Source of the DNA: Anaerolineae bacterium
Lineage (GTDB): Bacteria; Chloroflexota; Anaerolineae; Anaerolineales; UBA4823
DNA: 45,850 nt
Direction: 5' to 3'
Assembly: GCA_041481345.1 (NCBI GenBank)
Contig: JBGPBQ010000002.1
Coordinates: forward strand, 1-45,850
The notes below the pieces were generated by a model. It ran no database searches, was not told the origin of the DNA, and saw only the letters and a program-made list of their open reading frames with translations. This document shows positions 1,085 through 45,850 of this stretch, in pieces (the stretch's first letter is position 1; each line of letters opens with the position of its first letter). The translations under genes were made by a program, and so were the position numbers.

Positions 1085-1117
1085 CCACTTACCCGATATG
1101 GGTAAGTGGTTTTTTTA
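1085..1117 (+). terminator. Rho-independent terminator between the HTH-like gene and cas1
   Basis: Perfect 10-bp stem CCACTTACCC / GGGTAAGTGG with a 5-nt loop GATAT, followed by a run of 7 T. Confidence 0.75.
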
Positions 1118-1145
1118 TTTAGGCATTGATAGGAGGCATTTTACG

Positions 1146-2915: not shown

Positions 2916-3034
2916 TGTGTCTTCTCCTGGCGAATTATTATAAACCCTGGATTCCTGATGGAGGAATTATATTCAGAAATATGGATTTTACAAGCTACGA
3001 CTTATGAGAATCAGCAGGAAGTATAATTTACTGG

Positions 3035-3844: not shown

Positions 3845-3924
3845 TCTATGTAGCCGTCATCGCTGATGGCGGATGAATATAAATGTTTGACGATTCCGTG
3901 GGTGCCCTCTTTTGAAGAAAAACA

Positions 3925-4386: not shown

Positions 4387-4395
4387 CCTGATCCC

Positions 4396-5193: not shown

Positions 5194-5335
5194 ACCTCAA
5201 TTCATTAAAAGATATATAGCCGCCTCAACGATCACGGCTCGCCGTAATTGGATCATCCCCAATCCTTACAAACCTGTCAGTTATCCCATCCATGCCGGGC
5301 CTGTCTCATCAATTATATTGCGGTAAAATTAATTA

Positions 5336-30925: not shown

Positions 30926-31357
30926 CTAACGATCAATGCTCTGTCCTGCTTGCTCCCAGGCTGCCATGCCACCGACCAGGCTGAAGATATGAGTATAGCC
31001 CAGGCCTACAAGGGTTTCAGCCGCAATGCTGCTCATCCGCCCGCTGCGGCAGTACAGGACGATCCTGGCATTCTCATCCGGTAGTTTATCCAGGTTCTGG
31101 GCGATCTGGTCATATGGAATCGAAAGATCGGTGTGGGCGATGTTCCCTTCGAAGGGGATATGCACGTTCACCAGAGTGAAATCCTTGTTCGCTAGCAAAG
31201 TCTGCAACTCGCTAACGCTGATATCCGTGTAACCGCCTCCTGCAACTGAGACAGGCTTCCCAACCACTCCCACCGCTGCCTGCGGCGACTGGGTGGGGCT
31301 GCATGCTGTTAGCAGCAAAATTGCCAATATTGTGGTTATTACTATCGATCGAGACAT
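30926..31357 (-). CDS. Rhodanese-domain lipoprotein
   Basis: Lipobox LLLTAC and active-site loop YCRSGRMS. Confidence 0.8.
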   Translation of the reverse strand: MSRSIVITTILAILLLTACSPTQSPQAAVGVVGKPVSVAGGGYTDISVSELQTLLANKDFTLVNVHIPFEGNIAHTDLSIPYDQIAQNLDKLPDENARIVLYCRSGRMSSIAAETLVGLGYTHIFSLVGGMAAWEQAGQSIDR

Positions 31358-31470: not shown

Positions 31471-31878
31471 TCAAACGCTGCTTTTCAACGCCTCCAGCAC
31501 CGCCCTCAGGCTGGTTTTTACTTCCTGAGGGAATCCCACCATCGAAAGTTTCGTCGCTTCGTCGACCACGCTGAACATCACCTCAGGGTCCTGGATGCTC
31601 ACTTCTACGCCATCCGGGTCTTGCCAGAGCACCACATTACACGGCAGGAGCAGACCGATGGATTCGTCCGCCGAGAGTGCTTGATAGGCGAAGCGCGGGT
31701 TGCAGGCTCCCAGGATCAGGTAGGGCTTGAAATCCACGCCCAGCTTTGCTTTCATGGTCTTCTGCATATCAATTTCGGTAATCACCCCAAAACCTTGTGT
31801 CTTGAGCGCTTCTACAACGTGTTCCTTTACCACCTCGAGGGTCCCGTTGAGTTTTATACTCATCCCATAACTTGACAT
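31471..31878 (-). CDS. DUF302-domain protein
   Basis: GFGVITEIDMQKTMKAKLGVDFKPYLILGACNPRFAYQAL. Confidence 0.75.
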   Translation of the reverse strand: MSSYGMSIKLNGTLEVVKEHVVEALKTQGFGVITEIDMQKTMKAKLGVDFKPYLILGACNPRFAYQALSADESIGLLLPCNVVLWQDPDGVEVSIQDPEVMFSVVDEATKLSMVGFPQEVKTSLRAVLEALKSSV

Positions 31879-31890
31879 AATCCTATCCTC

Positions 31891-33654
31891 CTATTTTTGA
31901 TCTGCTTCATACGGCTGCACAGGTAAAGTAACCGTCAGGCTGGTGCCCTTGCCTGCTGAAGACTTTATAGATAATGTGGCGCCAATTAGCTCTGCCCGCT
32001 CATGCAGTCCGAGCAACCCAAAATGACCCTTGGCGGCGTATTCCGCCGGGTTGTCCGGCAAATTGAAACCCAGCCCATTGTCAACCACCTGTAAAGTCAC
32101 TGCATTTGACGAGAAATTTATACTTAGCGATGCCCACTGCGCATGGGCATGCCGGGTGATATTACTGCAGGCTTCTTGTGCCATCCGGTATAGCGCAAGT
32201 TCGGTCGAAGCCGGCAGCCGTCTTTCGATTCCCTGATGGTGGAACTCCATGCTCGCACTCATCCCATCGCCAGTCTCACGCGCCAGCATCTCGAGCGCAG
32301 GCACCAGACCCAGGTCTTCCAGGTACACCGGTCGCATTGCCCGGGTGAGCCGGCGCAGGTTCTCAATCGTCTGCTCGGTTAGCAACATGATCTCATTCAA
32401 TTCGTCTGATTCAGGGGCGGGCTCGCGTGAAGCTGACTGATGCCCAAGCTGGGCCAGCTGCACCCTCTGCTTGAGGGCAATCAATGCCTGTAGGGTGTCG
32501 TCATGCAGCTCACGTGCCAGACGGCGGCGCTCATCCTCCTGAGCCTCGGTAATCGCACCGATGTAGCCATGTAGGCTGCGTTGGGCCTCATCGACCTTAT
32601 CTGCCATCTGGATCAGCTCTTTTTGCAATTGCTGTATCTCGGCAATCCCGCCCACCGGCTCCTGGATGGTCTTAAAATCTCCCGCTGCCAAGGTGGCGGT
32701 CTTGGATTCCAAGGCGCGCAGCGGTCTGACCACCTGGCTTGCCCCAAACCACAGCGCCAGCAGCATGATAAGCACCGCCGGAACGAGCACCAATGGGGCA
32801 ATTTGCGAACTTTGTAAGGTGGGTGTGGAGACGGCTTGCCAGGATTCTTCGGTGATCAACGCCCACGCTGCTGCAGGCACCGGGCTGTATGCCGTCACAT
32901 GCTCATCACCGCCGACTTTCACGTAAGCTGTACCGCTCTTGCCTTGCAGGGCTTCCGCCACTCCCGGGTGTTGCGCACTTCGGTCGCTAAAACCCCCAGC
33001 GTTATACAGAATCTGGTTATCCGCCCCTACCAGCATGATCGACAGCTGCCCGTCTGAGGGTAGGATATCGCCAAGGGTCGATTCGACCAGTTTGTTAACC
33101 GAAAACGCCCCCAACAGCAAATTATTATTACCAAGCCTGGTTGAGATCAATCCAATCGAAGTTGTGTTACCAGAGAGCTGGGTTACCACTAGCTTGCCAG
33201 GTTGTGCCGCCAGGCGGGCAAATACCGCCGGCCAATTTAGGTTCTCCGCAGTCAACTCAGTCATCACTTGAGGATCTCCCTGGATAGAGACTTGCTCCCC
33301 ATGCGGGCTGAATATCGCCACACCGGCATCGAAATCGGGCATCAGGGAGCTTATGCTAGCCAGGGTGGTGGTGATTGGTTGGGAGGAATTCGCTGAGAGC
33401 AGATCCGCGATGATTTGCATTTCTTTCATCCGGTAATCTACCTGGGCATTGAGCGCGCTTGCTGCGGTACGCACAGCCCTTGCATCCCTCTCACCCACTA
33501 TATTGCGCATGGCTTGTTGGTGGATGCTGAGGCTGCCGAAGGTGATCGCCACTAATAGGAGCGTCAGCGGTAGCAAGATTATCGCAAATAGCTGCAGCAC
33601 CAATCCCAGGGCAGGCAGCTTAATCCCGAACTTTGGGCGCTTGGACGCCTTCAT
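31891..33654 (-). CDS. Sensor histidine kinase (HisKA_3 / NarX-type) with periplasmic sensor and HAMP domains
   Basis: ERRRLARELHDDTLQAL H-box and HATPase motifs (DNGLGF, GLLGLHERAELIGATL). Two TM segments flank a domain of about 270 aa. I prefer the start at MKASKRPKF (33654), 10 nt after the regulator stop, over the track start at 33819. Confidence 0.85.
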   Translation of the reverse strand: MKASKRPKFGIKLPALGLVLQLFAIILLPLTLLLVAITFGSLSIHQQAMRNIVGERDARAVRTAASALNAQVDYRMKEMQIIADLLSANSSQPITTTLASISSLMPDFDAGVAIFSPHGEQVSIQGDPQVMTELTAENLNWPAVFARLAAQPGKLVVTQLSGNTTSIGLISTRLGNNNLLLGAFSVNKLVESTLGDILPSDGQLSIMLVGADNQILYNAGGFSDRSAQHPGVAEALQGKSGTAYVKVGGDEHVTAYSPVPAAAWALITEESWQAVSTPTLQSSQIAPLVLVPAVLIMLLALWFGASQVVRPLRALESKTATLAAGDFKTIQEPVGGIAEIQQLQKELIQMADKVDEAQRSLHGYIGAITEAQEDERRRLARELHDDTLQALIALKQRVQLAQLGHQSASREPAPESDELNEIMLLTEQTIENLRRLTRAMRPVYLEDLGLVPALEMLARETGDGMSASMEFHHQGIERRLPASTELALYRMAQEACSNITRHAHAQWASLSINFSSNAVTLQVVDNGLGFNLPDNPAEYAAKGHFGLLGLHERAELIGATLSIKSSAGKGTSLTVTLPVQPYEADQK

Positions 33655-33664
33655 AAACTTACTT

Positions 33665-34342
33665 TCATTCTTCGGCAATGGTTCCGATGGTCTGCGAAAT
33701 CCACCCCAATGAGACCGCCCGCATAACCGCCTCAGTGCGGCTGCCGGCTTGCAGCTTGTTGAAGATATGCGCCAGGTGTCCCTGGACGGTACGGTCACTG
33801 ATGCCAAGCTGCACACCAATGGCTTTGTTGGTATAGCCTTTGGCGGCTAGTGAGAGCACTTCCAGCTCGCGTTCGGTTAGCTGCTCCACTTGCACGGCTT
33901 CCCTTGGTTGGCTGAGCTGAGCCAGCAGCTTTTGTGTGATTGTTGGGTCTAAAACCGATTTACCGGCGTACACATCGTGCACCGCCTGGATGAGATCAGA
34001 CGGGGAGGCAGTCTTCAGCACATAACCGTTCGCACCCGCCTGTAAAACGGCCAGCACATACGGGTCATCGTCGTATGCCGTCAGGATCAACACACCCACT
34101 GTGGGGAAATTTGCCCTCACCCAACGCGTGACTTCAATCCCACTGTACTTCGGCATTTGAATGTCGAGCACCGCAACATCCGGCTGGCGCTGGCGGATCA
34201 GACTCTGCGCCATCTCGCCGTCATCGGCTTCAGCTATCACCTGGATATTGCCGGCACGTTCCAGGTATTGGCGGATGCCTGCCCGGACGATGGCATGATC
34301 GTCAGCCAGGAGAACAGCGATAGGGTCAGTTTCAAGTGTCAT
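33665..34342 (-). CDS. NarL/LuxR-family response regulator
   Basis: REC domain (LLADDH, DVAVLDIQMP, the T in ILTAY, the K in VLK) plus LuxR HTH (LTERELEVLSLAAKGYTNKAIGVQLGISDRTVQGH). Confidence 0.9.
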   Translation of the reverse strand: MTLETDPIAVLLADDHAIVRAGIRQYLERAGNIQVIAEADDGEMAQSLIRQRQPDVAVLDIQMPKYSGIEVTRWVRANFPTVGVLILTAYDDDPYVLAVLQAGANGYVLKTASPSDLIQAVHDVYAGKSVLDPTITQKLLAQLSQPREAVQVEQLTERELEVLSLAAKGYTNKAIGVQLGISDRTVQGHLAHIFNKLQAGSRTEAVMRAVSLGWISQTIGTIAEE

Positions 34343-35061
34343 ACTGAAATATTTTCAGGCTTCTGGGCTGCTCCTGAAACAGGTCTGGCAGCCGCTAATG
34401 GTTGGTCTGGTGAGGCGATAACATGGTCCAAATATGGATAAGTGTACCAGACGATTCCCAATCCAAACAGCATGCCAGTTAATAAGCGCATTAGTGAATT
34501 AAAAGTTCCAAACGTCTCACCTGAGTAGAAGGATAATGGGAATATGTGTTGAGTAATTGCAGCCAGCCACAAATTTCCATACCGGAAACCCTGCCCAATC
34601 CCCGCCAGGTCGCTTATGAAATGGCTGGTGCCGTCAATTGCCATAGGCAGCAGGAATAACGCCAGACCCCACCATGGAAACGGCTTGAGCTTACGACGCA
34701 GGGGCCACCATAACAACCCAAATATCCACAGGCTTGTGAACATAGACACCATCCGGTCAGACCAGGCCACTTTCCAGCCCATCTCCGGGCTGCCGATGAA
34801 CTGCCGTAGGATCGCCGGGTTGTTGGTCTGCTGCCAGGCGTTCTGGATATCGGTGAGTGAATACGTGAAATGGCTGCCGAAAAGGAAGTAGGAGCGTTCC
34901 GGCAGCTGATGGCACAGCCATGAATAGATGAAGTAGATCACTTTTGCCGCACCTTCCAGACCAGCGTGCATCAGGACGGGTGCCAGTAAGGGTAAGCATG
35001 CGTACACTCCCAACACAACCGTCAGGGGAATGATCCAATATCGACGGAGAAATATGCTCAA
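34339..35061 (-). CDS. DUF2085-family membrane protein
   Basis: CHQLPERSYF motif and multiple TM helices. Its stop overlaps the regulator start (ATGA). Confidence 0.7.
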   Translation of the reverse strand: MSIFLRRYWIIPLTVVLGVYACLPLLAPVLMHAGLEGAAKVIYFIYSWLCHQLPERSYFLFGSHFTYSLTDIQNAWQQTNNPAILRQFIGSPEMGWKVAWSDRMVSMFTSLWIFGLLWWPLRRKLKPFPWWGLALFLLPMAIDGTSHFISDLAGIGQGFRYGNLWLAAITQHIFPLSFYSGETFGTFNSLMRLLTGMLFGLGIVWYTYPYLDHVIASPDQPLAAARPVSGAAQKPENISV

Positions 35062-35127
35062 ATTGTTTTACCTTAAACCACGGAGCACCAAACTTTTTCT
35101 ATGGAAAATAAATTCATTTCTGGCAGG

Positions 35128-36147
35128 TTATTTAACCCCACAGCTCCCGCCGCCGCTGGGCGCTTGCTCGAGCAATCCATTCTGCGACAGATACTGGTGC
35201 ACGGCCTGGTATCCTGATATTGACGCATACTGGTAGCTCACCACCGTCTTGGCGTCCACCTGGGTGAAATCGCCTTTGTCGACAGATTTGAAGGCGGTAG
35301 CAATTTCCAACATTTGCTGTGGGTACCAAAAGGCGGTCACATATTTTGCAGCATCGAACATTTCAGCTGTGGATGCATCCTGCGAAGCCATGAGCTCCAG
35401 CAATCCCAACATCGCCATCCCATGGTTGCAGTCTGGGAAGTGGGTGGGGTTGTTGCAGCATGGCCGGTAAACCACAGAGGCCACATCCAGCAGCCTGGCT
35501 TGCTGTTCATCGGTTAGTGCCATGATTTTTGTGCTGGCATACAGCTCGGTCGGCTTTTTGACGCCCAGGGTCCACCCACCGGTGGAAGCAAATCCACCCA
35601 CCTGGTCTTTCCCGCCAGACATCATCGGTCCATCGGTGAGGATGGCGTTCTGGTTGGTCAACCCCAGCGCCCAGAAGAAATTCAGTAAAAAATAGGCATT
35701 CCCCGGCGTGAAAACGATGCTGGCCTTGGTCCCCTTTGACAGGATGGTTTTTTGGTCATCGGTCAGCGGTTGGTTTTGCTGCTGATACAGGCTGACGAAT
35801 TTGGCCATATCGATCGCCCCGGCAGCCACCAGCTGTGGACCGACATCACCAAACACAGCTGCCACTTTATAACCATCCGGTGGGTTGACCTCCTTCATGA
35901 GCGTCATCGCGTCTTGCTGACTTTGGGCTTGGCTTGTGGGAACAGCTGCATGCATCGACTGCCGCCCCATCATATATCCTCCTCCACCCCCGAGTGCAAA
36001 GACCACTAACAACACCAGCGCTTTGACAGCCACCCCTCGCCTCCGGTGGTCTGGTGGATTGGAGCCTGGATCATGATCAAGGGATGGATTATCAGCATTC
36101 GAGTGTTCCATTTGATCTGACATGTTCATTCTCCTTTGGTTTTTCAA
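35128..36147 (-). CDS. Membrane-anchored hypothetical protein with Cys/His motif
   Basis: Single TM VKALVLLVVFALGG, motif YRPCCNNPTHFPDCNHG, C-terminal GGGSCGVK. No family recognised. Confidence 0.5.
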   Translation of the reverse strand: MKNQRRMNMSDQMEHSNADNPSLDHDPGSNPPDHRRRGVAVKALVLLVVFALGGGGGYMMGRQSMHAAVPTSQAQSQQDAMTLMKEVNPPDGYKVAAVFGDVGPQLVAAGAIDMAKFVSLYQQQNQPLTDDQKTILSKGTKASIVFTPGNAYFLLNFFWALGLTNQNAILTDGPMMSGGKDQVGGFASTGGWTLGVKKPTELYASTKIMALTDEQQARLLDVASVVYRPCCNNPTHFPDCNHGMAMLGLLELMASQDASTAEMFDAAKYVTAFWYPQQMLEIATAFKSVDKGDFTQVDAKTVVSYQYASISGYQAVHQYLSQNGLLEQAPSGGGSCGVK

Positions 36148-36240
36148 GTTTGAGTTATAACGAAATGAGCTTCTGGATTACGGTTTTTCAAAATTTCGCT
36201 AGACATTATTGAGCACGAATGAGAGTATCTTGAAGCAATT

Positions 36241-36891
36241 TCAGGGGGATATCGTTGGCACAGGTATATCGCCGTACTCCTGCTGCAGCAGCTGGTCTAC
36301 CGATTGTTGTTCAGCGTTAAAAAAATCCTGGTCCATGCCAGCGTTCGTCAGGCTCACCTCGATCCTGCCCTGTTCACTGCTCAGGATCTGGCGGAATGCT
36401 TTGAGGTTGTAATAATCCGCCATTGCGACCGGCTTTCCCTGCTGGATCAGGCTGTACACCTTGTTATACTCCACCGCGATCGTGGTTACGTTCCTCCACG
36501 ACATGCCGAGCTCACTGGGAGGGATGGACTGGTTGTAGGCTTTAATCGCGATCGGGAAAGCGATCGTGTAAGGTTGACTGGCAGCTGTATCACTGCCGTT
36601 AATAGATCCCGCTTGGACGTCACCCAGGTATTCGATAATCAGATCTGCCGCCCGTTCGAGCAGCAGGATGGAGCGGTAGCTCATGACCAGCGGGGTTTCC
36701 GTCGGCTCGGGTTGAGTCGGCGGGGGTAATGTGGGGATCTCTACCCTGGGTGTGGATTCCGGTGAAGGGACTGCCAGAGTGGATGTCGATCCGACAGGAG
36801 TAATCGCCTGGAATGAGCATCCCGCCAGCGCCGACAAGGTGATCATAACCATCAGGCAACTGTAAAAATTAATCCTTCTGTACGGTGCCAT
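36241..36891 (-). CDS. Hypothetical lipoprotein
   Basis: Lipobox LSALAGCSF followed by a Pro/Thr-rich linker. Confidence 0.5.
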   Translation of the reverse strand: MAPYRRINFYSCLMVMITLSALAGCSFQAITPVGSTSTLAVPSPESTPRVEIPTLPPPTQPEPTETPLVMSYRSILLLERAADLIIEYLGDVQAGSINGSDTAASQPYTIAFPIAIKAYNQSIPPSELGMSWRNVTTIAVEYNKVYSLIQQGKPVAMADYYNLKAFRQILSSEQGRIEVSLTNAGMDQDFFNAEQQSVDQLLQQEYGDIPVPTISP

Positions 36892-36924
36892 ACGATCTTC
36901 CTTTCTTCCCAGCGGTGGTTATTT

Positions 36925-37353
36925 TCATCCATCACCAGGAGCCGGCAGCGAGTGGACCGGATCATTTCCTGCCATGGGCGAATGACATGCACCTGGGGTA
37001 GATTGGGCTTGGTTTGTAACTAAACGCCGCATGGCTGCTACTAGCTGGGGGTCTGCACGCTGCTGCGGAGTGTCCACCACCGAGAACCAGGTCTGCCCCT
37101 CGTACCCATGGGCGATCATCGCCAGGGGTTGCCGGTGATCCTGATACACCAACAGTATCACCATCTGGCAGTCGCATTGGTCGGTCCCATGGTGGGGGCA
37201 GGGACAAGACGTGTGGGTCTGGCGGGCTATCTGCAGGTCAAAGGTGCGCATCACCGATAGACCTGCCCGGCGCGCCTGCTCTGTCACCCAACCCACGGCT
37301 TCGTCACAGGGCTGATCCAGTAGTGTAAGAGCGGTATTATCGCTCATAATCAT
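36925..37353 (-). CDS. Cys/His-rich DUF302-like protein
   Basis: GLSVMRTFDLQ..., then the CPCPHHGTDQCDCQ cluster. The ATG at 37353 overlaps the stop of the upstream small ORF (ATGA). The track start at 37365 is TTG. Confidence 0.5.
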   Translation of the reverse strand: MIMSDNTALTLLDQPCDEAVGWVTEQARRAGLSVMRTFDLQIARQTHTSCPCPHHGTDQCDCQMVILLVYQDHRQPLAMIAHGYEGQTWFSVVDTPQQRADPQLVAAMRRLVTNQAQSTPGACHSPMAGNDPVHSLPAPGDG

Positions 37354-37499
37354 TTCGTTGGCCAACCTCGATCGTTCATCTCTTCCTGCAGTATTTGCAT
37401 AAAGCTCATGTTCTCACCGAGGCATCCTGAACCGTTGACAAGTGTTTCGACCCGCTCCAATTCATTCAGAATGTTTTCCCACGATGAAATAATTTGCAT
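37350..37499 (-). CDS. Small ORF (49 aa), possibly translationally coupled
   Basis: MQIISSWENILNELERVETLVNGSGCLGENMSFMQILQEEMNDRGWPTK. ATGA overlap with the next gene. No clear SD sequence. Confidence 0.3.
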   Translation of the reverse strand: MQIISSWENILNELERVETLVNGSGCLGENMSFMQILQEEMNDRGWPTK

Positions 37500-37519
37500 T
37501 GCACATCGCTGAAGAATGA

Positions 37520-38011
37520 TCAGGGTACCCAATTCGACAATACCGTCAAAGTCTTGTCGCCCCAGTTTGTATCATTGCTGGGCAGGTGTACGCGGAAGTC
37601 ATGCTTCCCATCCATACCTGCATGCATCATGAACTTCATGTCGAGGGTTGTGGTATCGCCAGGTTTAAGTGCCATCGAACCGATGGCAGGAGTAGGGGGT
37701 CAGCACCCCTCCGCGACATCGACATACGGGGTCTTGCTAAAGCGCAGTGTCTTGTCACCCACATTGGTCAGCGTGAACTTTACATCCACGGTCTGGCCCA
37801 GCTTGACGTCGCCCAGGTCCACTTTCTCCTGGCTCACCTTCAGACTCGGCGACCCGGTGACCATGATGGCTGCTTTAGATTGGGATGGCTTTCTGAAGGC
37901 GAAGAATATGCCGGTGATCAGCAGCAGGCCGCCTGCCAACAGCAGGATCATCGGCCATTGCTGTTTTCTCTTCCTGTTTTTGAGGGTTTTGTTTTGTTTA
38001 TGTTGGCTCAT
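37520..38011 (-). CDS. DUF1573-domain membrane-anchored protein with an in-frame TGA (selenocysteine candidate or nonsense mutation)
   Basis: 103 codons, then TGA (37700-37702), then 59 more in-frame codons to TGA at 37520-37522. Reads VDLGDVKLGQTVDVKFTLTNVGDKTLRF...VAEGC[TGA]PPTPAIGSMALKPGDTTTLDMKF...HDFRVHLPSNDTNWGDKTLTVLSN. The downstream part completes the DUF1573 fold. The TGA falls at the position of the conserved CGC motif. Confidence 0.6.
37671..37687 (-). other. SECIS-like hairpin 12 nt downstream of the in-frame UGA
   Basis: The mRNA reads UGA CCCCCUACUCCU GCCAUCG-GUU-CGAUGGC. This is a perfect 7-bp stem whose apical loop starts with GU, 19 nt from the UGA. Confidence 0.4.
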
Positions 38012-39006
38012 GGTGTAACCTCCGAATTAAATTGGAATGTCCATAAATAAGCGATTAATTCCCAGGTTTGGTCTTCAGTAAATATCGCCCCCCATGCGGG
38101 CATGCCCGTCCCCATACCGCCACGGATGATCTTTCCCTGCAGGTGGGCCGGGCTGGCGGAAAGCATCGTCGCTGGGTCGGTGAAGTTCGCTGGTCGCTGG
38201 GTATGCTCACCCGTATTTTGGTTTGAAGCTGTATTGGCAGAGCCTGCAGCTAATTGGTCAGCGAAAACCCCATCCCCGCCGCCCTTCTCTCCATGGCAGG
38301 CGGCGCAGTTGGCTGAATAAATTTCCTTGCCGGCTTGGACCTGTTCTGGGGTGGTGTTGGATTTCCACACCCACGCCACCAGGTCCCAAACTTCCTGTTC
38401 AGACAGGTCTTTATACGATTGGTCAGACCTGAGTGCTGACCATAAGTCCAGCGGGGTATGGGAGAGGTAATAATCGCGGTTTAAATATGTTACCGGCACG
38501 CTGAGGTTGAGCAACGCCCCGCGCCAGGCAGCGGGTATACCCACTGGGGTGACTGCGGCTTTGTGAGCTGTGTCGATATCCAGCCCCAGCGAGACGTACA
38601 ATGGCGGCTTGGCCGGTTCTGTCTTCGCAGGCGGGTCGGTGACTTCGATCGTACCGCGCATGCGCCAGTGGTTCAGGCTGCACCAGCGTGTGCAGTAAAA
38701 GGTATATTTGCCTGGTTTGGTGAACACCAGTGTGATGTCGGTCATTTCACCCGGGTTGATTTCCACGGCGGGCTGGTTGAGCTGGCCGACGGCGAATCCG
38801 TGCGATACATCATCCGAAGTCAGCCGCAGATGAAGCGGTTCACCCACTGCCACAGTCAGATTTTCAGGGGTCCACCCACCTTTCTCCGCCATGCGGGCAT
38901 GTATCACGATTCCGTTTGAGCCGTGCACGGTTTTGATCACCGGGATGGAAATCACCGCTGCCAGCCCCAGAATGACGATACCGCGTGCGATCCATTCTTT
39001 AATCAT
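38008..39006 (-). CDS. CuA-type cupredoxin domain fused to a mono-heme cytochrome c, membrane-anchored
   Basis: The full CuA ligand pattern is H-x35-C-x3-C-x3-H-x2-M (SHGFAV...FYCTRWCSLNHWRM). C-terminal CAACHGEKGGGDG heme site with distal MPAWG. One N-terminal TM helix. Confidence 0.8.
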   Translation of the reverse strand: MIKEWIARGIVILGLAAVISIPVIKTVHGSNGIVIHARMAEKGGWTPENLTVAVGEPLHLRLTSDDVSHGFAVGQLNQPAVEINPGEMTDITLVFTKPGKYTFYCTRWCSLNHWRMRGTIEVTDPPAKTEPAKPPLYVSLGLDIDTAHKAAVTPVGIPAAWRGALLNLSVPVTYLNRDYYLSHTPLDLWSALRSDQSYKDLSEQEVWDLVAWVWKSNTTPEQVQAGKEIYSANCAACHGEKGGGDGVFADQLAAGSANTASNQNTGEHTQRPANFTDPATMLSASPAHLQGKIIRGGMGTGMPAWGAIFTEDQTWELIAYLWTFQFNSEVTP

Positions 39007-39009
39007 CGT

Positions 39010-40434
39010 CTACCCTGCCAGCAGCCATAAGAATGCGCCTGCATACACCAGGTAAAATGCCAATAGCGGATAATTGGTTGGGCGGCTTATCTTCTCGTCT
39101 GTTGTCGAAAGCTTCCGGGTCACCCGAGCCGACCAGAACACACTCACCACCAGCAAGAACACCTGCAGCAATAGGCTGATCTGCGAAACATCCAGGCCCC
39201 CACCACTGCTGGCGCCCAGGAGCTTCCAACCCCATCCGAATGGATCGTTGATTACACCTACGACGAAGTTAAGCTTGGGGAGCGCGAAGGAGATGGTGAA
39301 CGCCATCCAGGCCAATAATCCCAGCGGCAGCAGCCCCTGCGCTTCCTGGGCAATCAACCGCCTCAGCGGCAGGCTGCTGTGACTGATTTTTTTCCAAGCA
39401 GCAACACACATGGCGAAGATTCCGGGCAGCACCAGCAGGTTAAGCGCCAGGAAGCTTGCCGCATACACCAGCCAAGCCTGCGATCCGATATTGTATGCAC
39501 TCATCTTCAGCCAACCCCACGGTCCAAGGAAGACCGCCGAAAACACGAGCGCCGAGCCCAGCATGATTAACGCCAGAAAGGTTTCATCCAGCCGGGTTGA
39601 TTGGACGGGTCGTGCCAGGTCGGTCCCGTACGGGCGCAGGTTTAACGCCAGGTTATCTTTCGGGCACGCCCGCAGGCATTCCATGCATAGCCCGCAGGTC
39701 GAGCTGTCCTTCATCGCCAGCGGGTACACACCCCACGGGCACGCCCGGTAGCAGGATTTATCTCCATGTTGGGCGCATACTTCCTTATCGATCACCTTCA
39801 CTTCAACCGGGGCTGCCTTGGAATACATCCCGCTGAAACCACCAATCGGACAAATATAGCTGCAAAACGCACGGTGCTCGAACACCAGGCTCATCCCGAC
39901 CGCCAGCGCGAACAGCGCCAGCAGCACCCAGCCTGTGACTTGCGGGTCGGTGAGAGTGATGGCGCTGAACATGCCGATCAGCAGGAACCCGCCGGATTGA
40001 AGCCATGAACCTCGGAGTGCCTTGGGCCATTTTAGATGTAGCCCCAGCCTGCGTTTACCCTTTTCCATGATTCCACCCTGCTGCAGCCATTCTCCCGGCA
40101 GCGGGATGGGGCAGATGCTGCACCACGAACGCCCGCCCAGGGGGATGAACCCCAGCTTGAGCGTCGTCCACCAGGCAATCCACACCATGATAATAGCGAA
40201 ATTATGGCTTCCAACTCGCGAGCCCAGCAGGGCAACCACAATGGTGAACAAGAAACCCATCAACATGACCACCCGCAGGAGGAATTGCGGCCATGGGTTT
40301 GCAAGCGCTGCTTGCAGCCAGGGTATGCGGTATAAGTTGAGCTGTGTAGGAAGTGTGCGCGTCTTCACGGGCTGCGGCACCGCAACGTCTATGGTTGCTT
40401 TTTCTGTCCAGGGGAATTCCTGCAGTCGGGTCAT
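39010..40434 (-). CDS. Polytopic membrane 4Fe-4S polyferredoxin (NapH/MauN/CcoG-like)
   Basis: CSICPIP and CSYICPIGG motifs, CYRACPWG and CGLCMECLRACPKDN cluster motifs, and at least 8 hydrophobic segments. The ATG at 40434 overlaps the upstream stop (ATGA). The track start at 40494 is not needed. Confidence 0.8.
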   Translation of the reverse strand: MTRLQEFPWTEKATIDVAVPQPVKTRTLPTQLNLYRIPWLQAALANPWPQFLLRVVMLMGFLFTIVVALLGSRVGSHNFAIIMVWIAWWTTLKLGFIPLGGRSWCSICPIPLPGEWLQQGGIMEKGKRRLGLHLKWPKALRGSWLQSGGFLLIGMFSAITLTDPQVTGWVLLALFALAVGMSLVFEHRAFCSYICPIGGFSGMYSKAAPVEVKVIDKEVCAQHGDKSCYRACPWGVYPLAMKDSSTCGLCMECLRACPKDNLALNLRPYGTDLARPVQSTRLDETFLALIMLGSALVFSAVFLGPWGWLKMSAYNIGSQAWLVYAASFLALNLLVLPGIFAMCVAAWKKISHSSLPLRRLIAQEAQGLLPLGLLAWMAFTISFALPKLNFVVGVINDPFGWGWKLLGASSGGGLDVSQISLLLQVFLLVVSVFWSARVTRKLSTTDEKISRPTNYPLLAFYLVYAGAFLWLLAG

Positions 40435-40874
40435 CTTCGTCCCTTCCACACACCCGCGAAGAGTGCCAGCCCAACCAAAGCCATTGCCCGCCATAACAAT
40501 GTGTTTTGCCCCACCTCAAGCTTTCCGGTCATGAAGGGGTGCATGTTCCCACAGGTCACCGTGCAGTGAAAGCGGAACGTACCACTTCGGTCTGCAGTAA
40601 ACGTGATGCGCGCCGTCTTACCGGGGTCCGCTGTGGTTTGCAGGTCATACCCATCGATGGCCAGCCCGTGAACCACATCTGTGGCCACCAGCTCGATTGT
40701 CACGCGGTCACCCGGATTAACCTTTACGACTGCCGGGGAGTATTCAAATCTGCTGGCTTCAACTCGAAAAGTACGTTCAGTCGGCGCGGCTGCTCCTGCT
40801 GGAACGGGTATGAAGATGACCGCTACTGCCAGCCCGGCGAGGATAACCCAATGCCACCAATGGTTTAATTTCAT
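40431..40874 (-). CDS. CuA-type cupredoxin-domain protein with N- and C-terminal hydrophobic segments
   Basis: H-x34-C-x3-C-x3-H-x2-M (VVHGLAI...FHCTVTCGNMHPFM), which is exactly the CuA ligand spacing. Confidence 0.75.
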   Translation of the reverse strand: MKLNHWWHWVILAGLAVAVIFIPVPAGAAAPTERTFRVEASRFEYSPAVVKVNPGDRVTIELVATDVVHGLAIDGYDLQTTADPGKTARITFTADRSGTFRFHCTVTCGNMHPFMTGKLEVGQNTLLWRAMALVGLALFAGVWKGRR

Positions 40875-40891
40875 GCTTGAAAATTTACAGA

Positions 40892-41338
40892 TTACGGCAT
40901 GTTGGAAGGACCATACTGAGAGTAGGTCTGGTCGATATACGTTTTGATCTCGGGAGGGGCCTTACCCTGCTTGGATAATCTCATCACGTCCTGGGTAATA
41001 TCCACGCAGATGGAACAACCAAGAGCGTGTGAATCATAGGCTATCCGCCCGTTCGCGTCCGCGCCGGAGACATAGCAGGAGTAATTCGAGGTATGCCCGA
41101 TGTCACCACACCCGCAGTAGCATGGGATCTGTTTCATCATATCCGGGTTGGCAGCTGCGTACTGGTAGGCCTGCTGGACAACCGGCGGGGCGGACTTCAC
41201 TCCATCCGGCATGCCATCCATCGATGCCATCGGCAGGTTGCCCAGCCCGGAAGAGGCGCTGCTGCAGCCGGATAAAACCACTAAAAATATTGGGGAAATT
41301 ATCAGTAGAGAAATTACCTTTACCAGGGTTGATTTCAA
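40892..41338 (-). CDS. PCYCGC-motif lipoprotein
   Basis: A TTG at 41338 lies 8 nt after GGAGG and gives MKSTLVKVISLLIISPIFLVVLSGCSS (lipobox). Motifs IPCYCGCGDIGHTSNYSCY and GCSICVD. The track start at 41431 adds an unlikely Arg-rich extension. Confidence 0.7.
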   Translation of the reverse strand: MKSTLVKVISLLIISPIFLVVLSGCSSASSGLGNLPMASMDGMPDGVKSAPPVVQQAYQYAAANPDMMKQIPCYCGCGDIGHTSNYSCYVSGADANGRIAYDSHALGCSICVDITQDVMRLSKQGKAPPEIKTYIDQTYSQYGPSNMP

Positions 41339-41652: not shown

Positions 41653-42444
41653 TTAAAACCACTTATCCAGGTTCTCCAGCCACTTGCGCACCGACTTGGG
41701 CGATTTCAAAACATAATCACCCCCGGTCGAGCGGATATAGCCGAAATACTGCGCCACTGAGATCGCCACACCATCATTGGCATGGATGGTCTGGAACGCT
41801 TCGGCATCATTATTGTCATCCCCAACGTAAACCAGGCGTGCTTCCTGCATGGGGAAGCTGTTCAGCAGGAAGGTGACCGCCTTGCCTTTGTGCGCCTTGG
41901 CTGAGCTGATCTCCAGGAATTTTTTCTGCTTGATCAGGCGGTATTCATCGGTGATCATGTCCTGGTCCAGGCTCTGCTGGATGGTGGAGATCACGTGTGT
42001 GGCTTCCTTCTCAGGGGCGAAGCGTGCGTGCAGCGCCAGTGACCAGCCCTTGTCCTCCAGGTAGTAACCTTTGCGCCCGTCAATGATCTCTTCCCAATGC
42101 GGTTTTAACCGTTCCAGGTAGGGGCGGACCAACGCATAATCCTCCCGATGGATCCGTTCTCCCTCCGGTGTTAGCACCTCGATGCCGTAAGTGCCGGCGA
42201 TGAAGATCCCCTCGACCGGCAACAGCGCCTGGAGGTCCTTTAACCGCCTCCCGCTGACAATCGCTACTCGAATCCTGCTTTTCCCGGCCAGCCGTTTGAT
42301 CAGCTCGATGACTTTTGGATCTGGCTTGATGATATCGGGTGTGCGGGTGAATTCCACCAATGTCCCATCATAATCGAGGAACAGCCATAACCTTTCAGCT
42401 GCAGACACCCATGCATTCAGCTCAATTTCAGACGCAAACTTCAA
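41653..42444 (-). CDS. otsB: Trehalose-6-phosphate phosphatase (HAD family)
   Basis: FLDYDGTLV, SGRRL and GDDNNDAEAF motifs. Confidence 0.85.
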   Translation of the reverse strand: MKFASEIELNAWVSAAERLWLFLDYDGTLVEFTRTPDIIKPDPKVIELIKRLAGKSRIRVAIVSGRRLKDLQALLPVEGIFIAGTYGIEVLTPEGERIHREDYALVRPYLERLKPHWEEIIDGRKGYYLEDKGWSLALHARFAPEKEATHVISTIQQSLDQDMITDEYRLIKQKKFLEISSAKAHKGKAVTFLLNSFPMQEARLVYVGDDNNDAEAFQTIHANDGVAISVAQYFGYIRSTGGDYVLKSPKSVRKWLENLDKWF

Positions 42445-43691
42445 ACCTCTCCTCCTCCTGTCAGCAGCGGAAGGATATCATGTTTGAAGATTGCCTGCCA
42501 GGTGAAATTTTTTCGGATACGCTGGCGCAAGCGCTGAGTAGGGCTGTTTCGTGCCCATCCCAGGATCAGCTCTGCCACCTGGTCTGCTGATGAATCCGCC
42601 GAAAACCGGATCACCTCCTGGCCTCCAATCTCTTCCGACGCAGGGATTTCCGTGCTGAAGATGGGCATGCCAATCAATCCCGCTTCCAGGATCGGCATCC
42701 CGAACCCCTCCCTGTGGCTGGGCATGAACAGCACGTCGCAAATTCGGTAAAGTTCTCCCACCAGCGGTAAACCAATCGCATACTCGTTTTCCCCTTGCGG
42801 ACCCGATGAATACACAAACCCAGATTCCCGCTCGACACCCAACTTCGAGCGCAGCTCCAATAAGCTGTGATAATATGCCATGTCTTCGGGGTCATGTGGG
42901 TCGGGTGGACCGGTGACTACAAGCTTCGTGCGGATGCTCTTAGATACAAGGCTGGCAGTGACCTGCAGGGCGAGCTCGATATTCTTTGCCTGGGTGACGC
43001 GAACCGGCATCAAGAGAATCAGGTCGGCCTCATTCAGCCCGAGGCGCTCGACCAGCACCTGACCCTCATCTGACAGGCTGTATATGTCCGCCGGGTCGAC
43101 CCCATCGTACACCACCTGGATTCGCTCAGGTGCGCAATGAAATAATCCTGCCAGCTCTGCCTGGCGGTGGAGCGATACTGTCACGTAAGTTACATCTTCC
43201 CGATATGTTCGCAGCAGGTCCCACGGGTAGCCTGGATGTACATTTGGCCTCGAGTGGGAGCTGGTCCAGGTGAAATCATGGCACCAGGCGATGCAGTGTT
43301 TGATCTTCCCCTGGTCGAGCAGTCGAATCAGGGCTGCCGTCAGTGGCAGGTTGAAATGCTTGGTAAACACATTGTGGATGATGACATGATCCATCCCCTC
43401 AATGGCAGCTTCTAATGCTTTCTCGATGCTAGCTGTTAATAACTCAAAATCATCCGGGACTTTGCCGTCTTCCAGCTGCTGGCTGGCCTGAACGATCTGC
43501 GGATGGCGGGAATCCATTTCTGGAATTCGGATAAACTCCGCCCCATCTGGGAGGGCAGCCTTTTCACCAGCACCGGCGATCAATGTCACCGGGTAGCCGG
43601 CACCGAGAAGCAATGAAGCGTGCGCCTGGATCACCGCCTCGACCCCTCCTACCACCGGAGGGAGTGAGTAATGCAGGATCGCGGTTTTCAT
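42441..43691 (-). CDS. GT4-family (group 1) glycosyltransferase
   Basis: GT-B fold signatures. The C-terminal EGFGMPILEAGLIGMPIF contains the E-x7-E motif. ATGA overlaps on both sides with otsA and otsB. Confidence 0.8.
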   Translation of the reverse strand: MKTAILHYSLPPVVGGVEAVIQAHASLLLGAGYPVTLIAGAGEKAALPDGAEFIRIPEMDSRHPQIVQASQQLEDGKVPDDFELLTASIEKALEAAIEGMDHVIIHNVFTKHFNLPLTAALIRLLDQGKIKHCIAWCHDFTWTSSHSRPNVHPGYPWDLLRTYREDVTYVTVSLHRQAELAGLFHCAPERIQVVYDGVDPADIYSLSDEGQVLVERLGLNEADLILLMPVRVTQAKNIELALQVTASLVSKSIRTKLVVTGPPDPHDPEDMAYYHSLLELRSKLGVERESGFVYSSGPQGENEYAIGLPLVGELYRICDVLFMPSHREGFGMPILEAGLIGMPIFSTEIPASEEIGGQEVIRFSADSSADQVAELILGWARNSPTQRLRQRIRKNFTWQAIFKHDILPLLTGGGEV

Positions 43692-45229
43692 AAACCAAGC
43701 TCAACGATGGTTTCCAGCTGCCTGCACAGCCAATCGACGATATCCTCCCGCTCGACAAGGCTGCGTAATCGCTCAGCTTTCTCTTTTCGTTCGTCAGGCG
43801 GCATGACCAGCGCCTGGTGCAGCGCACTGGCAGTCGTGGAGATATCCAGCGGTGGGATGACCAGCGCACCCGACCCAAGCTGCTCGTGGGCGCCTGTCCG
43901 TTCAGAGAGCACCAACACCCCTTGCTGTTGGTTGACCACCGGACCTTCCTTAGCGACCAGGTTCATCCCGTCTGCAATCGAATTTACCAGCAGCACATCA
44001 TACAGCTGCATGGCTGCCACAGCGCGCGGATAGTTTTCTCCCACCATCACCCGCACCGGCTCCCAATTACTGTCCCCATATTTGGCGTTCACCTGACCGG
44101 CAGCCCCCATTAATTCGTTCAGATAATTTTGATATTGCTCCACCTCCATACGGGAGGGGACTAATAATGCCAGGAATTGCACCTTGCCGCGGTGCTCCGG
44201 GTACAGCTCGAGCAGCTCATCAAATGCCTGGAAGCCGCGCACAATATTCTTGCTGGGTTCGATGCGATCGATGCGCAGGATCAACGGGCTACCGCCGTAT
44301 TGTTCCAAAAATGACTTGTGATGTTCCGCCACCTCCTCCGACAGGGCCAATCGTTTGAGTGCCTTCACGTCAATCGAGATCGGGAATTCGCGCACATGGG
44401 TGGTATGGTTCCGATACCACACCCGGCTTTTTTTGAAATTCACATGCGCCCTCGGTAAGTGGCTCTCACACGTGCGGATGAAGTTCAAGGCATCCTCCCG
44501 CGTTTGGAACCCCAGCAAGTCCACCGAGCACAAACCTTCCAGGATGCTCTGCCGCATGCGTGGTGGCAGTAAGCCCCAATCTTCAGCTCCAGGCCAGGGG
44601 ATGTGGATGAAATGCATCAGGGTGTATTTTTTCCGCGGGCGGAATACTCTGCGGATGTAATACGGCGCCAGGTACAGGTGATAGTCCTGGAGCATCACCA
44701 AAGACGGCTGCCCTTTTGCCAGGATTTGTTTCGAGACCGCCTCTGCAAACTGCCGGTTGACCACCATATATCCATTTTGCCAGTTCTGCCAAGTGGTGCG
44801 GTCAATCGTCGGCGAGCGGAAGATATCCCACATCGAATGCTGCAGGAACCACAGCAGCGGGTTAGCGATCACTTTGTAATAGCCATCATAGGCAGATTCT
44901 GCTGACGTTACGAACTGCACCTGCATCGACCCACCTCCCTCAGCGATGGACACCATTCCCCCCTGCCAGGTCTTATCTTCCTCCGAGAGTGCGCTGGCGA
45001 TCCAGCAAGCATCCACGTGCTGTGCGATGCCGGATATCGCAGACACGAGCCCCCCTCCTCCGCTGCGCTGTGGCTGGATCACCCCATTCTCATCCGTATG
45101 GAAGGTAATCGGTCCATGGTTAGAGGCAATGATCAGCTGCCGGGTTTGTAGTAGCTGCTCCCACGAGCTGCAGTATATCTCACTGCCTTGTAAGCCGATC
45201 ATATCTGGAGAAGTATCCATGAAATTCAC
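43688..45229 (-). CDS. otsA: Alpha,alpha-trehalose-phosphate synthase (GT20)
   Basis: NPLLWFLQHSMWD, LQDYHLYLAP, FIHIPWP and LVNSIADGMNLVAKE. Confidence 0.9.
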   Translation of the reverse strand: MNFMDTSPDMIGLQGSEIYCSSWEQLLQTRQLIIASNHGPITFHTDENGVIQPQRSGGGGLVSAISGIAQHVDACWIASALSEEDKTWQGGMVSIAEGGGSMQVQFVTSAESAYDGYYKVIANPLLWFLQHSMWDIFRSPTIDRTTWQNWQNGYMVVNRQFAEAVSKQILAKGQPSLVMLQDYHLYLAPYYIRRVFRPRKKYTLMHFIHIPWPGAEDWGLLPPRMRQSILEGLCSVDLLGFQTREDALNFIRTCESHLPRAHVNFKKSRVWYRNHTTHVREFPISIDVKALKRLALSEEVAEHHKSFLEQYGGSPLILRIDRIEPSKNIVRGFQAFDELLELYPEHRGKVQFLALLVPSRMEVEQYQNYLNELMGAAGQVNAKYGDSNWEPVRVMVGENYPRAVAAMQLYDVLLVNSIADGMNLVAKEGPVVNQQQGVLVLSERTGAHEQLGSGALVIPPLDISTTASALHQALVMPPDERKEKAERLRSLVEREDIVDWLCRQLETIVELGL

Positions 45230-45524
45230 CCTTAGCTTTAAGCTCTGTAATCGTTATTTTTCACCCCAATAAACTACCCGCCCAAAAGGTTGTTGTATCC
45301 TGATCATTACGAGAAATGTCTGGCTGCCCTATCAGTCAAGAATGATCCCGCCTTTCACCTTGGTTTGCATATATCGTGTTCCAATCTCACCCGCAAAACC
45401 TTAACCCATTCCATACTCCCTCCCCTTTAAGGAAGATTATTATACCGTTTCGCGCCCTCCGCCATGTAAAAAACGAAAGGAGGATTTGCATTCAGTCCTT
45501 CCGATAGACTTATCGATATTTTTT

Positions 45525-45850
45525 CCCCAGGCCAGCCTGTAAGCCGCATTCTGTCCATGCAGGTTTCCCTGCATTGATGATCATCTCTCTAGGACGTAAG
45601 TTACCTCACGCCTCATGCAGTCTACCCGAAGCTGCGGACCTTGCGGCCCAGGTGACGAGCAGCCACCTCCCATGGGATTGCCTCTGCTTGACCTTGCTCC
45701 AGGCGGGGGTTGCCTGGCCGTGGACGTTGCCGCCCACGCCGGTGGTCTCTTACACCACCTTTTCACCCTTACACTTACACCCGTAGGTGCGAGTGCGGTC
45801 TGTTTCTGTGGCCCGATCCGTCAGGTTGCCCCGTCCCGGGGGTTACCCGG
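45525..45850 (-). ncRNA. rnpB: RNase P RNA, bacterial type A, 5' end cut by the window edge
   Basis: The minus strand carries conserved blocks GGGCCACAGAAACAGACCGC, GUAAGGGUGAAAAGGUGGUGUAAGAGACCACC, CCGCCUGGAGCAAGGUCAAG, CGGGUAGACUGCAUGAGG and GGACAGAAUGCGGCUUACAGGCUGGCC. The P1-P4 5' strand (GAGGAAAGUCCGGGC) lies beyond position 45850. Confidence 0.85.

Follow-up and report, generated by a model that had tools for sequence, protein, structure and literature searches.

A conserved operon of uncultured Chloroflexota encodes two CuA-type cupredoxins, a NapH-like iron-sulphur membrane protein and a predicted Cys-Sec protein of the DUF1573 fold

To our knowledge, the binuclear copper centre CuA is a textbook part of only two enzyme types. 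In the haem-copper oxidases it is located in subunit II (CoxB/CtaC, or CbaB in the Thermus ba3 enzyme), a membrane-anchored cupredoxin, and in the caa3-type subunit IIc the CuA domain is combined with a C-terminal cytochrome c. In the N2O reductase system the CuA centre of NosZ is accompanied by NosR/NosGH, NosC and NosL. The same mix of CuA, an iron-sulphur (Fe-S) protein of the NapH superfamily with a CX3CP motif, c haem and a copper-related lipoprotein was found in the locus described here, an operon on the minus strand of a 45,850-nucleotide stretch of DNA from an Anaerolineae bacterium (contig JBGPBQ010000002.1 of assembly GCA_041481345.1, positions 1 to 45,850; the whole stretch is referred to as the window).

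Other described systems share single features with this operon. The route from NosR/NosGH to CuA is the nearest functional analogy for an Fe-S membrane protein that would feed CuA, and NapGH is comparable. NapH and MauN have in common with the Fe-S protein of the operon Fer4_5 motifs of the CxxxCP type, a 2x[4Fe-4S]-type Cys pattern in a cytoplasmic loop and, as predicted here, the delivery to periplasmic carriers. Copper delivery by CcoG, CcoI, SenC and PccA is a precedent for Cu(II) reduction driven by Fe-S clusters (PMC8475189). The likeness lies in a membrane ferredoxin-like protein, CcoG (FixG/RdxA), whose gene is linked with those for a copper P1B ATPase and for extracytoplasmic copper chaperones of thioredoxin-like and Ig-like fold. 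However, CcoG acts on cytosolic Cu(II) without CuA or cytochrome c partners, and its client oxidase is absent from the module. The two accessory proteins of the operon belong to the same Pfam families (DUF1573 and PCYCGC) as the selenoprotein families DUF1573/OS_HP2 and CYCXC/OS_HP4 known from ocean metagenomes. According to two reviews, the known DUF1573 selenoproteins carry a UGC motif and those of the CYCXC/PF13798 family a UxxC motif (PMC9312934, PMC13188914).

The core of the operon consists of five genes, all on the minus strand. A PCYCGC/CYCXC-family lipoprotein (40892..41338) is followed by cupA, a CuA-type cupredoxin of 147 amino acids (aa) (40431..40874), by a polytopic Fe-S protein of 474 aa belonging to the NapH/MauN superfamily (39010..40434), by cupB-cyt c, a CuA cupredoxin with a monohaem cytochrome c (332 aa, 38008..39006), and by a membrane-anchored, Ig-like DUF1573 protein of 163 aa (37520..38011). 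An earlier reading of the sequence, made without database searches (the sequence-only reading), had pointed out the tight coupling of these genes, and the ATGA overlaps at 40431-40434 and 38008-38011 as well as the 3-nt gap at 39007-39009 were verified. The gene boundaries had to be revised in three places. The Fe-S gene starts at 40434 and not at the start of the longest open reading frame (ORF), which gives a product of the same length (474 aa) as the database homologues. The DUF1573 gene had been ended at 37700, but the TGA at 37702-37700 is read here as an overlooked selenocysteine (Sec) codon and the true end lies at 37520. The module had been extended to 37350, and the stretch from 37350 to 37519 holds no part of it. 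The genes appear to form one operon, and their products would make up a self-contained membrane redox complex.

Both cupredoxins contain the complete set of CuA ligands with the spacing that had been proposed, H69-x34-C104-x3-C108-x3-H112-x2-M115 in cupA and H69-x35-C105-x3-C109-x3-H113-x2-M116 in cupB, and the fusion of cupB to a cytochrome c was confirmed by the CAACH motif at residue 234 and a Pfam match to Cytochrom_C. CupA has an N-terminal signal/anchor helix and a C-terminal transmembrane helix, while cupB consists of an N-terminal anchor helix, the CuA cupredoxin, a helical linker and the C-terminal monohaem cytochrome c. The Pfam model COX2 matched cupA with 37.7 bits and cupB with 27.3 bits (gathering score 22), and the closest sequence relative of both proteins in the PDB was the CuA domain of the Thermus ba3 oxidase (E about 1e-12). 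An AlphaFold2 (AF2) model of cupB with a predicted local distance difference test score (pLDDT) of 84 was superposed by Foldseek on the ba3 CuA domain at 1.5 Å over 90 residues (36% identity) and on NosZ CuA domains at 1.7-2.0 Å. Among the NCBIfam models of NosZ and CoxB, only the CuA-domain parts aligned to cupA and cupB. The CoxB cutoff of 147.7 bits (TIGR02866) was missed by cupA (47.5 bits) as well as by cupB (43.7 bits), and only the last ~85 positions of the NosZ models were matched, with 57 and 50 bits against a cutoff of 625. CupA also gave a weak match to the NCBIfam CopI model.

In related loci the CuA ligands were complete in 87 of 89 cupA and 78 of 79 cupB ORF pieces, the exceptions being frameshifts or contig ends. 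Judged by sequence, cupA and cupB are genuine CuA-type domains, and they are closest to subunit II of the B-family oxidases. The cupredoxin fold, the full ligand set, the membrane anchor and the best sequence and structure matches are shared with subunit II, and the arrangement of CuA and C-terminal cytochrome c in cupB is that of the caa3-type subunit IIc. In contrast to subunit II, the module has no subunit I nearby, its domains are shorter and possess one N-terminal helix instead of two, and it comprises two CuA proteins together with an Fe-S partner of the NapH type. It differs from the N2O reductase system by the lack of a CuZ beta-propeller and by the absence of NosD, NosF, NosY and NosL.

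The Fe-S protein matched Pfam Fer4_5 in two stretches (39.4 bits, cutoff 22). Of the kinship with NapH and CcoG that the sequence-only reading had suggested, the part concerning NapH/MauN is weak but real, with 38.1 bits for TIGR02163 (NapH/MauN, cutoff 213) and 29.4 bits for NF007013 (NapH, cutoff 234), whereas no CcoG family model and no FixG_C domain was matched in the Pfam and NCBIfam searches at E <= 0.01. The alignment showed a CxxCP motif, a Cx3CP motif and seven further invariant Cys residues in the cytoplasmic loop. NapH has four helices, but the AF2 model and the charge counts of the loops gave about 9 transmembrane helices for the module protein, which has an additional C-terminal half of five helices. 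This half contains an invariant NDPFGWGW loop that, from the topology, would face outward. Further differences are that the first cluster motif is degenerate (C-x7-C-x3-CP), that no NapG-like partner gene is present in the operon and that the flavin domain of NosR is missing. An alignment of nine homologues (the window protein, seven bacterial and one archaeal sequence) revealed no invariant His. No universally conserved haem- or CuB-type site is thus evident, which argues that the protein is a conduit and not a catalytic subunit.

To define the distribution of the operon, species-representative genomes and JGI metagenomes were scanned with the Fe-S protein, which yielded 102 loci with 28-84% identity. 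The hosts were mostly metagenome-assembled genomes (MAGs) of Anaerolineae/Chloroflexota, with some Bacteroidota, one Thermodesulfobacteriota genome and one archaeon. Synteny was counted at the domain level over loci of 42-84% identity, four distant loci being excluded. CupA lay directly upstream of the Fe-S gene in 82 of 84 loci and cupB directly downstream in 67 of 68. A PCYCGC homologue was present within 3 kb of the Fe-S gene in all 75 evaluable loci, and a Cys-Sec DUF1573 gene within the same distance in 36 of 43; several of the loci without the latter have DUF1573 genes with the canonical CGC motif. The co-occurrence of PCYCGC, cupA, Fe-S protein, cupB-cyt c and DUF1573 therefore reflects a strongly conserved operon. 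On the archaeal contig the Fe-S protein is paired with a 140-aa CuA cupredoxin without cytochrome c. More than 1200 close homologues of the Fe-S protein exist, and the operon represents a widespread but nameless family with thousands of metagenomic members in uncultured Chloroflexota and also in Bacteroidota and archaea. Its products are publicly labelled as 'hypothetical', 'polyferredoxin', 'plastocyanin', 'cytochrome c oxidase subunit 2' or 'FtsQ', and a search of the literature found no description of the operon.

The absence of an oxidase subunit I and of NosZ from the window, which had been noted before, was confirmed, as no COX1 or NosZ domain was present in the window ORFs scanned with Pfam. 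COX1 and NosZ signatures, including the motifs GHPEVY and WxHHM, were also not found in 1.17 Mb of sequence from 108 related loci (109 sources). As the same gene order recurs without COX1 or NosZ in about 100 loci, a rearranged oxidase or N2O reductase cluster, the scenario named earlier as the one that would overturn the proposal, is effectively excluded. Relatives of the type found at L021 were set aside as a guide to function, since they belong to a Nap-like molybdopterin cluster and to a different subfamily. At this locus (L021:3974-11971) a distant Fe-S homologue (29% identity) with a His/Met-rich N-terminus lies with a molybdopterin oxidoreductase, a cytochrome c and NapG- and NapH-like genes.

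Gene fusions provided further evidence on the wiring of the module. When 1.84 billion cluster representatives were searched exhaustively, 2331 relatives of the Fe-S protein were recovered, 208 of them at E <= 1e-30. In 33 of the best 150 cluster representatives an N-terminal CuA cupredoxin is fused to the Fe-S protein, and the C-terminal helix of cupA runs directly into it. These fusions indicate that cupA forms a single functional unit with the Fe-S protein, divided in the window between two translationally coupled genes. The motif C-x3-C-x3-H-x2-M is retained in 25 of the 33, and about 7 fusions of a Bacteroidota type have Glu in place of Met. The latter may possess a different copper site. 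Fusions with C-x3-C-x3-H-x2-E were seen at L017:9410-11371, L019:9479-11428 and L020:1187-3145 and in P0302, P0311, P0323, P0335, P0338, P0342 and P0390; this type occurs without PCYCGC and cupB neighbours and is followed by FG-GAP and TPR proteins. In other members of the subfamily the cupredoxin is replaced by N-terminal cytochrome c or CxxCH-rich, multihaem-like domains. The outer partner of the Fe-S protein is thus always an electron-transfer domain.

Five of the best 150 carry an insertion with a GxGxxG motif. In four of these (P0259, P0271, P0288 and P0296) Pfam detected Fer4_20 and Pyr_redox_2 inside the Fe-S loop, corresponding to an NAD(P)H-FAD-Fe-S module of the GltD/dihydropyrimidine dehydrogenase type. 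The insertion of an NAD(P)H module implies that the Fe-S loop is cytoplasmic and that the cytoplasm is the source of electrons, and positive-inside charge counts agreed with a cytoplasmic location of the loop. The NAD(P)H-fused enzyme is preceded by two CuA cupredoxins at L105 and followed by one at L104. A 152-aa Cys-rich protein (L105:169-627; NCCLEEPCMYC...CTC...CGEC) is located ahead of the two cupredoxins at L105, where no PCYCGC gene was seen, and it may be a functional substitute for PCYCGC. The sequence-only reading, which is partly supported as a whole, had suggested a membrane chain running from a quinol or cytoplasmic donor through Fe-S clusters and CuA to haem c. The idea of such a chain gains independent support from the cupA-Fe-S fusions and from the NAD(P)H/FAD/Fe-S inserts. 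The fusions point to an outward flow of electrons from the cytoplasm to CuA, and the same direction would apply to the unfused form.

The last gene of the core operon is longer than annotated. The annotated DUF1573 product ends with ...VAEGC-TGA, and the public gene call stops at this UGA after 103 aa, but the frame remains open for 59 more codons to 37520. Read-through of the in-frame UGA (37700..37702) increased the Pfam DUF1573 score from 22.1 to 31.2 bits (gathering score 26.1; model positions 2-86 of 98) and places a vicinal Cys103-Sec104 site in the motif G-C-U-P-P. The TGA and its context G-C-U-P-P-x3-I-G-S-M were kept in 47 related loci. About 12-13 nt past the UGA starts a hairpin of the selenocysteine insertion sequence (SECIS) type, (u)GCCAUCG-GUU-CGAUGGC(a), at 37670..37688, with a minimum free energy of -12.6 kcal/mol. 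Its 7-bp helix was paired to 97.6% over 48 distinct sequences, compared with 16-67% in slid controls. The outer two pairs covary (AU/GC/GU and CG/UA/AU/UG), and the inner five are near-invariant despite synonymous codon positions, with one U-A to U-G change in two sequences. At L034 a TGC codon for Cys replaces the TGA, and the hairpin has decayed there. The conserved UGA, the covarying hairpin and the Cys homologues together identify the DUF1573 protein as a predicted selenoprotein. The hairpin matched no Rfam family, and no tRNA was found in the window.

The listed DUF1573 selenoproteins have a UGC motif, whereas in the window protein Sec directly follows Cys and is aligned against the canonical C-G-C. 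The Pfam cutoff was reached only after read-through, and the OS_HP2 model (NF041425) gave 17.3 bits against a cutoff of 100; the protein therefore has a DUF1573 fold but lies outside the named selenoprotein subfamily. The rare vicinal Cys-Sec pair is systematically lost in public annotation: among the best 120 database homologues listed, 103 are cut at '...GC' where they stop at the UGA, 11 are full-length with GCCPP and 4 have GCWPP, in which the TGA was probably translated as Trp. Some of the truncated entries (101-105 aa, including P0391) are labelled 'FtsQ' or 'cbb3 oxidase subunit 3'.

The PCYCGC lipoprotein at the other end of the operon matched Pfam PF13798 with 102.4 bits (cutoff 25) and the model NF041379, 'CYCXC family (seleno)protein', with 71.5 bits, below the cutoff of 90. 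In contrast to the CYCXC selenoproteins it is the all-Cys form. The longest ORF extends to 41431, but the likely start is a TTG at 41338, which gives the signal peptide MKSTLVKVISLLIISPIFLVVLSG followed by C, the lipobox being read from the sequence. The motifs PCYCGCGxxGH and HALGCSIC are conserved.

Recurrent neighbours of the operon were found by clustering unlabelled neighbour proteins. A copper-type P1B ATPase with YHS and HMA domains (TIGR01511, 620 bits, cutoff 397) was present within 10 kb in 12 of the 41 loci with at least 5 kb of upstream flank, mostly co-oriented and 0.6-3.9 kb upstream. Other recurrent neighbours were a Met-rich protein (9 loci), a small Cupredoxin_1 protein (9 loci), a TlpA-like redoxin (7 loci), a rhodanese (14 loci), a DUF302 protein (8 loci) and an S-adenosylmethionine (SAM) methyltransferase (14 loci). 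The surroundings of a cupA-Fe-S fusion with 46% identity at L106 form a copper island with an HMA-HMA ATPase, CsoR, a CopZ-like protein and a glutaredoxin, together with DUF1573, PCYCGC, cupA-Fe-S, cupB-cyt c, a further DUF1573 protein, a TlpA-like protein, a methyltransferase, a second ATPase with a His-rich N-terminus and a DUF2085 protein. An ArsR-type regulator lies beside the fused enzyme P0259 (L103), and cytochrome c maturation genes adjoin the operon at L013 and L104. The alternative idea of a copper reduction and insertion machine, which the sequence-only reading had mentioned, gains support from the copper-type ATPase, CsoR and CopZ-like neighbours.

Downstream of the core operon several genes on the same strand recur as partners. 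The protein p146 (36925..37365) is cytoplasmic, has no signal peptide and contains an invariant CPCPHHGTDQCDC motif; a homologue was found within 10 kb in 13 of 25 loci with long flanks, in differing orientations. The single-pass membrane protein p339 (35128..36147) has an extracytoplasmic domain with the invariant sequence YRPCCNNPTxFPDCNHGM and a C-terminal GGSCG, and its homologues occur within 10 kb in 11 of the 25 loci. Neither p146 nor p339 matched a Pfam or NCBIfam model. With hhalign, no significant relationship was detected between p146 and the DUF302 protein of the window (probability 9%) and no homology between p339 and PCYCGC (probability 1%), and PDB profile searches with p339 and PCYCGC gave nothing significant. 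A DUF2085 membrane protein (34339..35061; Pfam PF09858, 32 bits) with a CHQLPERS motif has homologues within 10 kb in 12 of the 25 loci, including some with rearranged gene orders. It is followed by a two-component system (31891..34342), composed of a response regulator of the NarL/LuxR type (33665-34342, assigned by Pfam) and a HAMP-HisKA_3 histidine kinase with an extracytoplasmic sensor domain (31891-33819, likely start near 33654). This pair stays beside the operon at L012, L014 and L042 despite an altered order or orientation, and at L055 and L075 the response regulator stays with DUF2085. Sec variants of the PCYCGC-CxxC, p339, p146, DUF2085, cupA or cupB motifs were not found in the loci. 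The core genes are one coupled unit without a nearby catalytic subunit, as described earlier, but the module is not a five-gene orphan, since it has p146, p339, DUF2085 and the two-component system (31891-37365) as recurrent partners.

Taken together, the operon probably encodes an autonomous CuA/Fe-S complex for outward electron transfer. The Fe-S clusters of the NapH-superfamily protein would lie on the cytoplasmic side and the two membrane-tethered CuA cupredoxins on the outer face. Electrons would enter from the cytoplasm, from NAD(P)H via FAD and Fe-S in the fused relatives and possibly from quinol in this organism, and would cross the membrane via the Fe-S protein, possibly by way of a quinone or of additional clusters bound to the CxxCP/Cx3CP motifs. 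Their exit would be through the CuA centres of cupA and then cupB and through haem c, to an extracytoplasmic acceptor of high potential. CuA and c haems have potentials near +250 mV and are able to reduce Cu(II) but not disulfides. The acceptor should thus be of high potential, and Cu(II) would fit both the chemistry and the neighbourhood. The constant Cys/Sec-rich extracytoplasmic partners, the frequent copper-type P1B ATPases, the single occurrence of CsoR and a CopZ-like protein and the two-component flank make Cu(II) the most likely candidate. That the complex is an extracytoplasmic cupric reductase with copper as the acceptor is a reasonable possibility, though one we hold short of probable. 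In such a system the thiolate/selenolate proteins (PCYCGC and the Cys-Sec DUF1573 protein) would capture the Cu(I) formed and also supply copper to the CuA sites of the module, in analogy to Sco, PCuAC and TlpA and to the CcoG-CcoI-SenC-PccA pathway. More tentatively, the system may represent a new class of prokaryotic transmembrane metalloreductase, in which electrons pass from NAD(P)H (in the fused forms) through a NapH-like Fe-S protein to a surface CuA that would be the business end and not a relay within an oxidase or N2O reductase, joined by a new vicinal Cys-Sec site for copper or redox chemistry.

Several points weigh against this proposal. We know CuA centres only as electron relays and not as substrate-reducing sites. 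No redox cofactor is evident within the membrane span of the Fe-S protein, and the crossing of the membrane is thus unexplained. The AF2 model of this protein was mediocre (pLDDT 61), and a Foldseek search of the PDB with it gave no match at E <= 0.001 and no structural lead for the membrane domain. The argument for Cu(II) as the acceptor is drawn only from the gene neighbourhood. A copper ATPase is missing from the surrounding 10 kb in 29 of the 41 long-flanked loci, and copper genes could be nearby only because CuA proteins need copper. The conversion of Cu(II) outside the cell to the more toxic Cu(I) would bring no obvious benefit unless the Cu(I) is captured. The P1B ATPase of the window itself (7269-9581, plus strand) was rejected as a copper link: it has an HMA domain and passed the cutoff of the Zn/Cd subfamily but not that for copper, and it lies 28 kb away. 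All carriers of the operon are uncultured MAGs.

Other explanations were considered. The operon might encode a respiratory branch, i.e. a quinol- or NAD(P)H-to-cytochrome c/CuA oxidoreductase feeding a terminal enzyme encoded elsewhere, such as a haem-copper oxidase, NosZ or a nitrite reductase, with PCYCGC, DUF1573, the TlpA-like protein and the ATPase serving in CuA/haem assembly only. The similarity of the Fe-S protein to NapH and NosH, the caa3-like layout of cupB-cyt c, the cytochrome c maturation genes at L013 and L104 and the fact that the outer fusion partner is always an electron carrier are all in line with it, and assembly factors commonly adjoin structural genes. However, feeders such as NapGH and NosGH normally lie beside their reductase, whereas no terminal enzyme was found in the 1.17 Mb of neighbourhoods, and the CsoR, CopZ-like and ArsR-type proteins and the dedicated two-component system look more like a metal-stress response than like respiration; we regard a respiratory branch as the main rival, somewhat less likely than the copper proposal. 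That the genes are merely those of an ordinary oxidase subunit II with accessory genes, or of an N2O reductase, split off by rearrangement, is very improbable. The public label 'cytochrome c oxidase subunit 2' on some cupB proteins and the domain-level similarity to CoxB and NosZ speak for such an origin, but the scores lie far under the CoxB and NosZ family cutoffs, about 100 loci from many species, and an archaeon, show the same order with neither subunit I nor NosZ, and the constant partner is the Fe-S protein, which is often fused. The module is not a fragment displaced from either enzyme.

The remaining explanations concern metals and thiols. Copper detoxification or sequestration, with copper as the cargo of the cupredoxins and Cys/Sec proteins and a CcoG-like Fe-S protein reducing cytoplasmic Cu(II) for export, would agree with the copper-island contexts, the CcoG precedent, the weak CopI match of cupA and the abundant Cys, Met and Sec ligands. 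It is nevertheless improbable: the strictly conserved binuclear CuA set and the fused c haem are hallmarks of electron transfer and not of cargo binding, no CcoG/FixG model was matched, and a cupredoxin fused across the membrane from the Fe-S loop is hard to reconcile with a purely cytoplasmic reaction. A little less probable again is the extracellular reduction of another soft metal or metalloid (Hg, Ag, Au, Te or Se) with the vicinal Cys-Sec/Cys-Cys pairs as binding or catalytic sites. In its favour, the vicinal dithiol motifs GCUPP and PCCNNP are reminiscent of proteins that handle Hg(II), and the selenoprotein lists in which the two accessory families first appeared place them next to Hg and Cu proteins. 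An ArsR-type regulator (beside P0259) and recurrent rhodanese, DUF302 and SAM methyltransferase genes also occur in the neighbourhoods. Against it, the ATPases tested were copper-type, the regulator at L106 is CsoR, and the neighbour clusters showed no mer, ars or ter genes. Finally, Sec usually marks redox catalysis, and with TlpA-like redoxins nearby and a high-potential CuA/haem c able to take electrons from thiols, the Cys-Sec protein might oxidise thiols in a relay like DsbA-DsbB or Mia40-Erv1-cytochrome c and pass the electrons via haem c/CuA to the membrane. We give little credence to such a relay, as the inserted NAD(P)H modules argue for an outward, reducing flow and as an inward flow from about +250 mV to Fe-S clusters would be uphill.

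If the system is a metalloreductase of the new class suggested above, CuA would for the first time be the basis of an enzyme system other than the haem-copper oxidases and NosZ. The CuA domains are stand-alone, duplicated and wired to an Fe-S membrane protein and, if functional, would widen the biological role of CuA. With copper as the acceptor, the complex would be a bacterial counterpart of the eukaryotic cupric reductases of the STEAP/Fre type, widespread in soil and sediment Chloroflexota. The results suggest that abundant uncultured anaerobes handle copper by a pathway so far unrecognised. If functional, the fusions that unite NAD(P)H-FAD, Fe-S and CuA modules in one polypeptide would be a tractable system for studying electron export across a membrane without haems. 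The public labels plastocyanin and cytochrome c oxidase subunit 2 on cupB could mislead metabolic reconstruction, for example by false calls of aerobic respiration.

Some further features of the surroundings were recorded. A rhodanese lipoprotein (30926-31357, minus strand) and a DUF302 protein (31471-31878, minus strand) lie just past the histidine kinase, and homologues are found near the operon in 14 and 8 loci, respectively. A SAM methyltransferase of the UbiE/Methyltransf_11 type is located beside the operon at L022:8070-8756, in 14-18 other loci and at L106:12034-12666; the window has a methyltransferase of its own at 20429-21091. Directly upstream of the operon, genes for a trehalose-6-phosphate synthase, a GT4 glycosyltransferase and a trehalose phosphatase were found (41653-45229, minus strand). 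As only the closest relatives (L001-L009, L015, L018 and L022) share this gene order, there is probably no functional link to the operon.

The rest of the window contains a Cas1 gene (1098-2183, plus strand), near which no CRISPR array was detected and no direct repeats in positions 1-5400, and a gene for a 517-aa multihaem c-type cytochrome (9889-11442, plus strand) with NrfA/MtrC-like Pfam matches and a weak match to 'multiheme cytochrome (seleno)protein ExtKL'. A 1160-aa regulator with BTAD and AAA_16 domains (and TPR) of the large SARP/LuxR-like ATPase type is encoded at 22305-25787 (plus strand). A class A bacterial RNase P RNA (190 bits) occupies positions 45524-45850 on the minus strand, its 5' end being lost at the end of the window.

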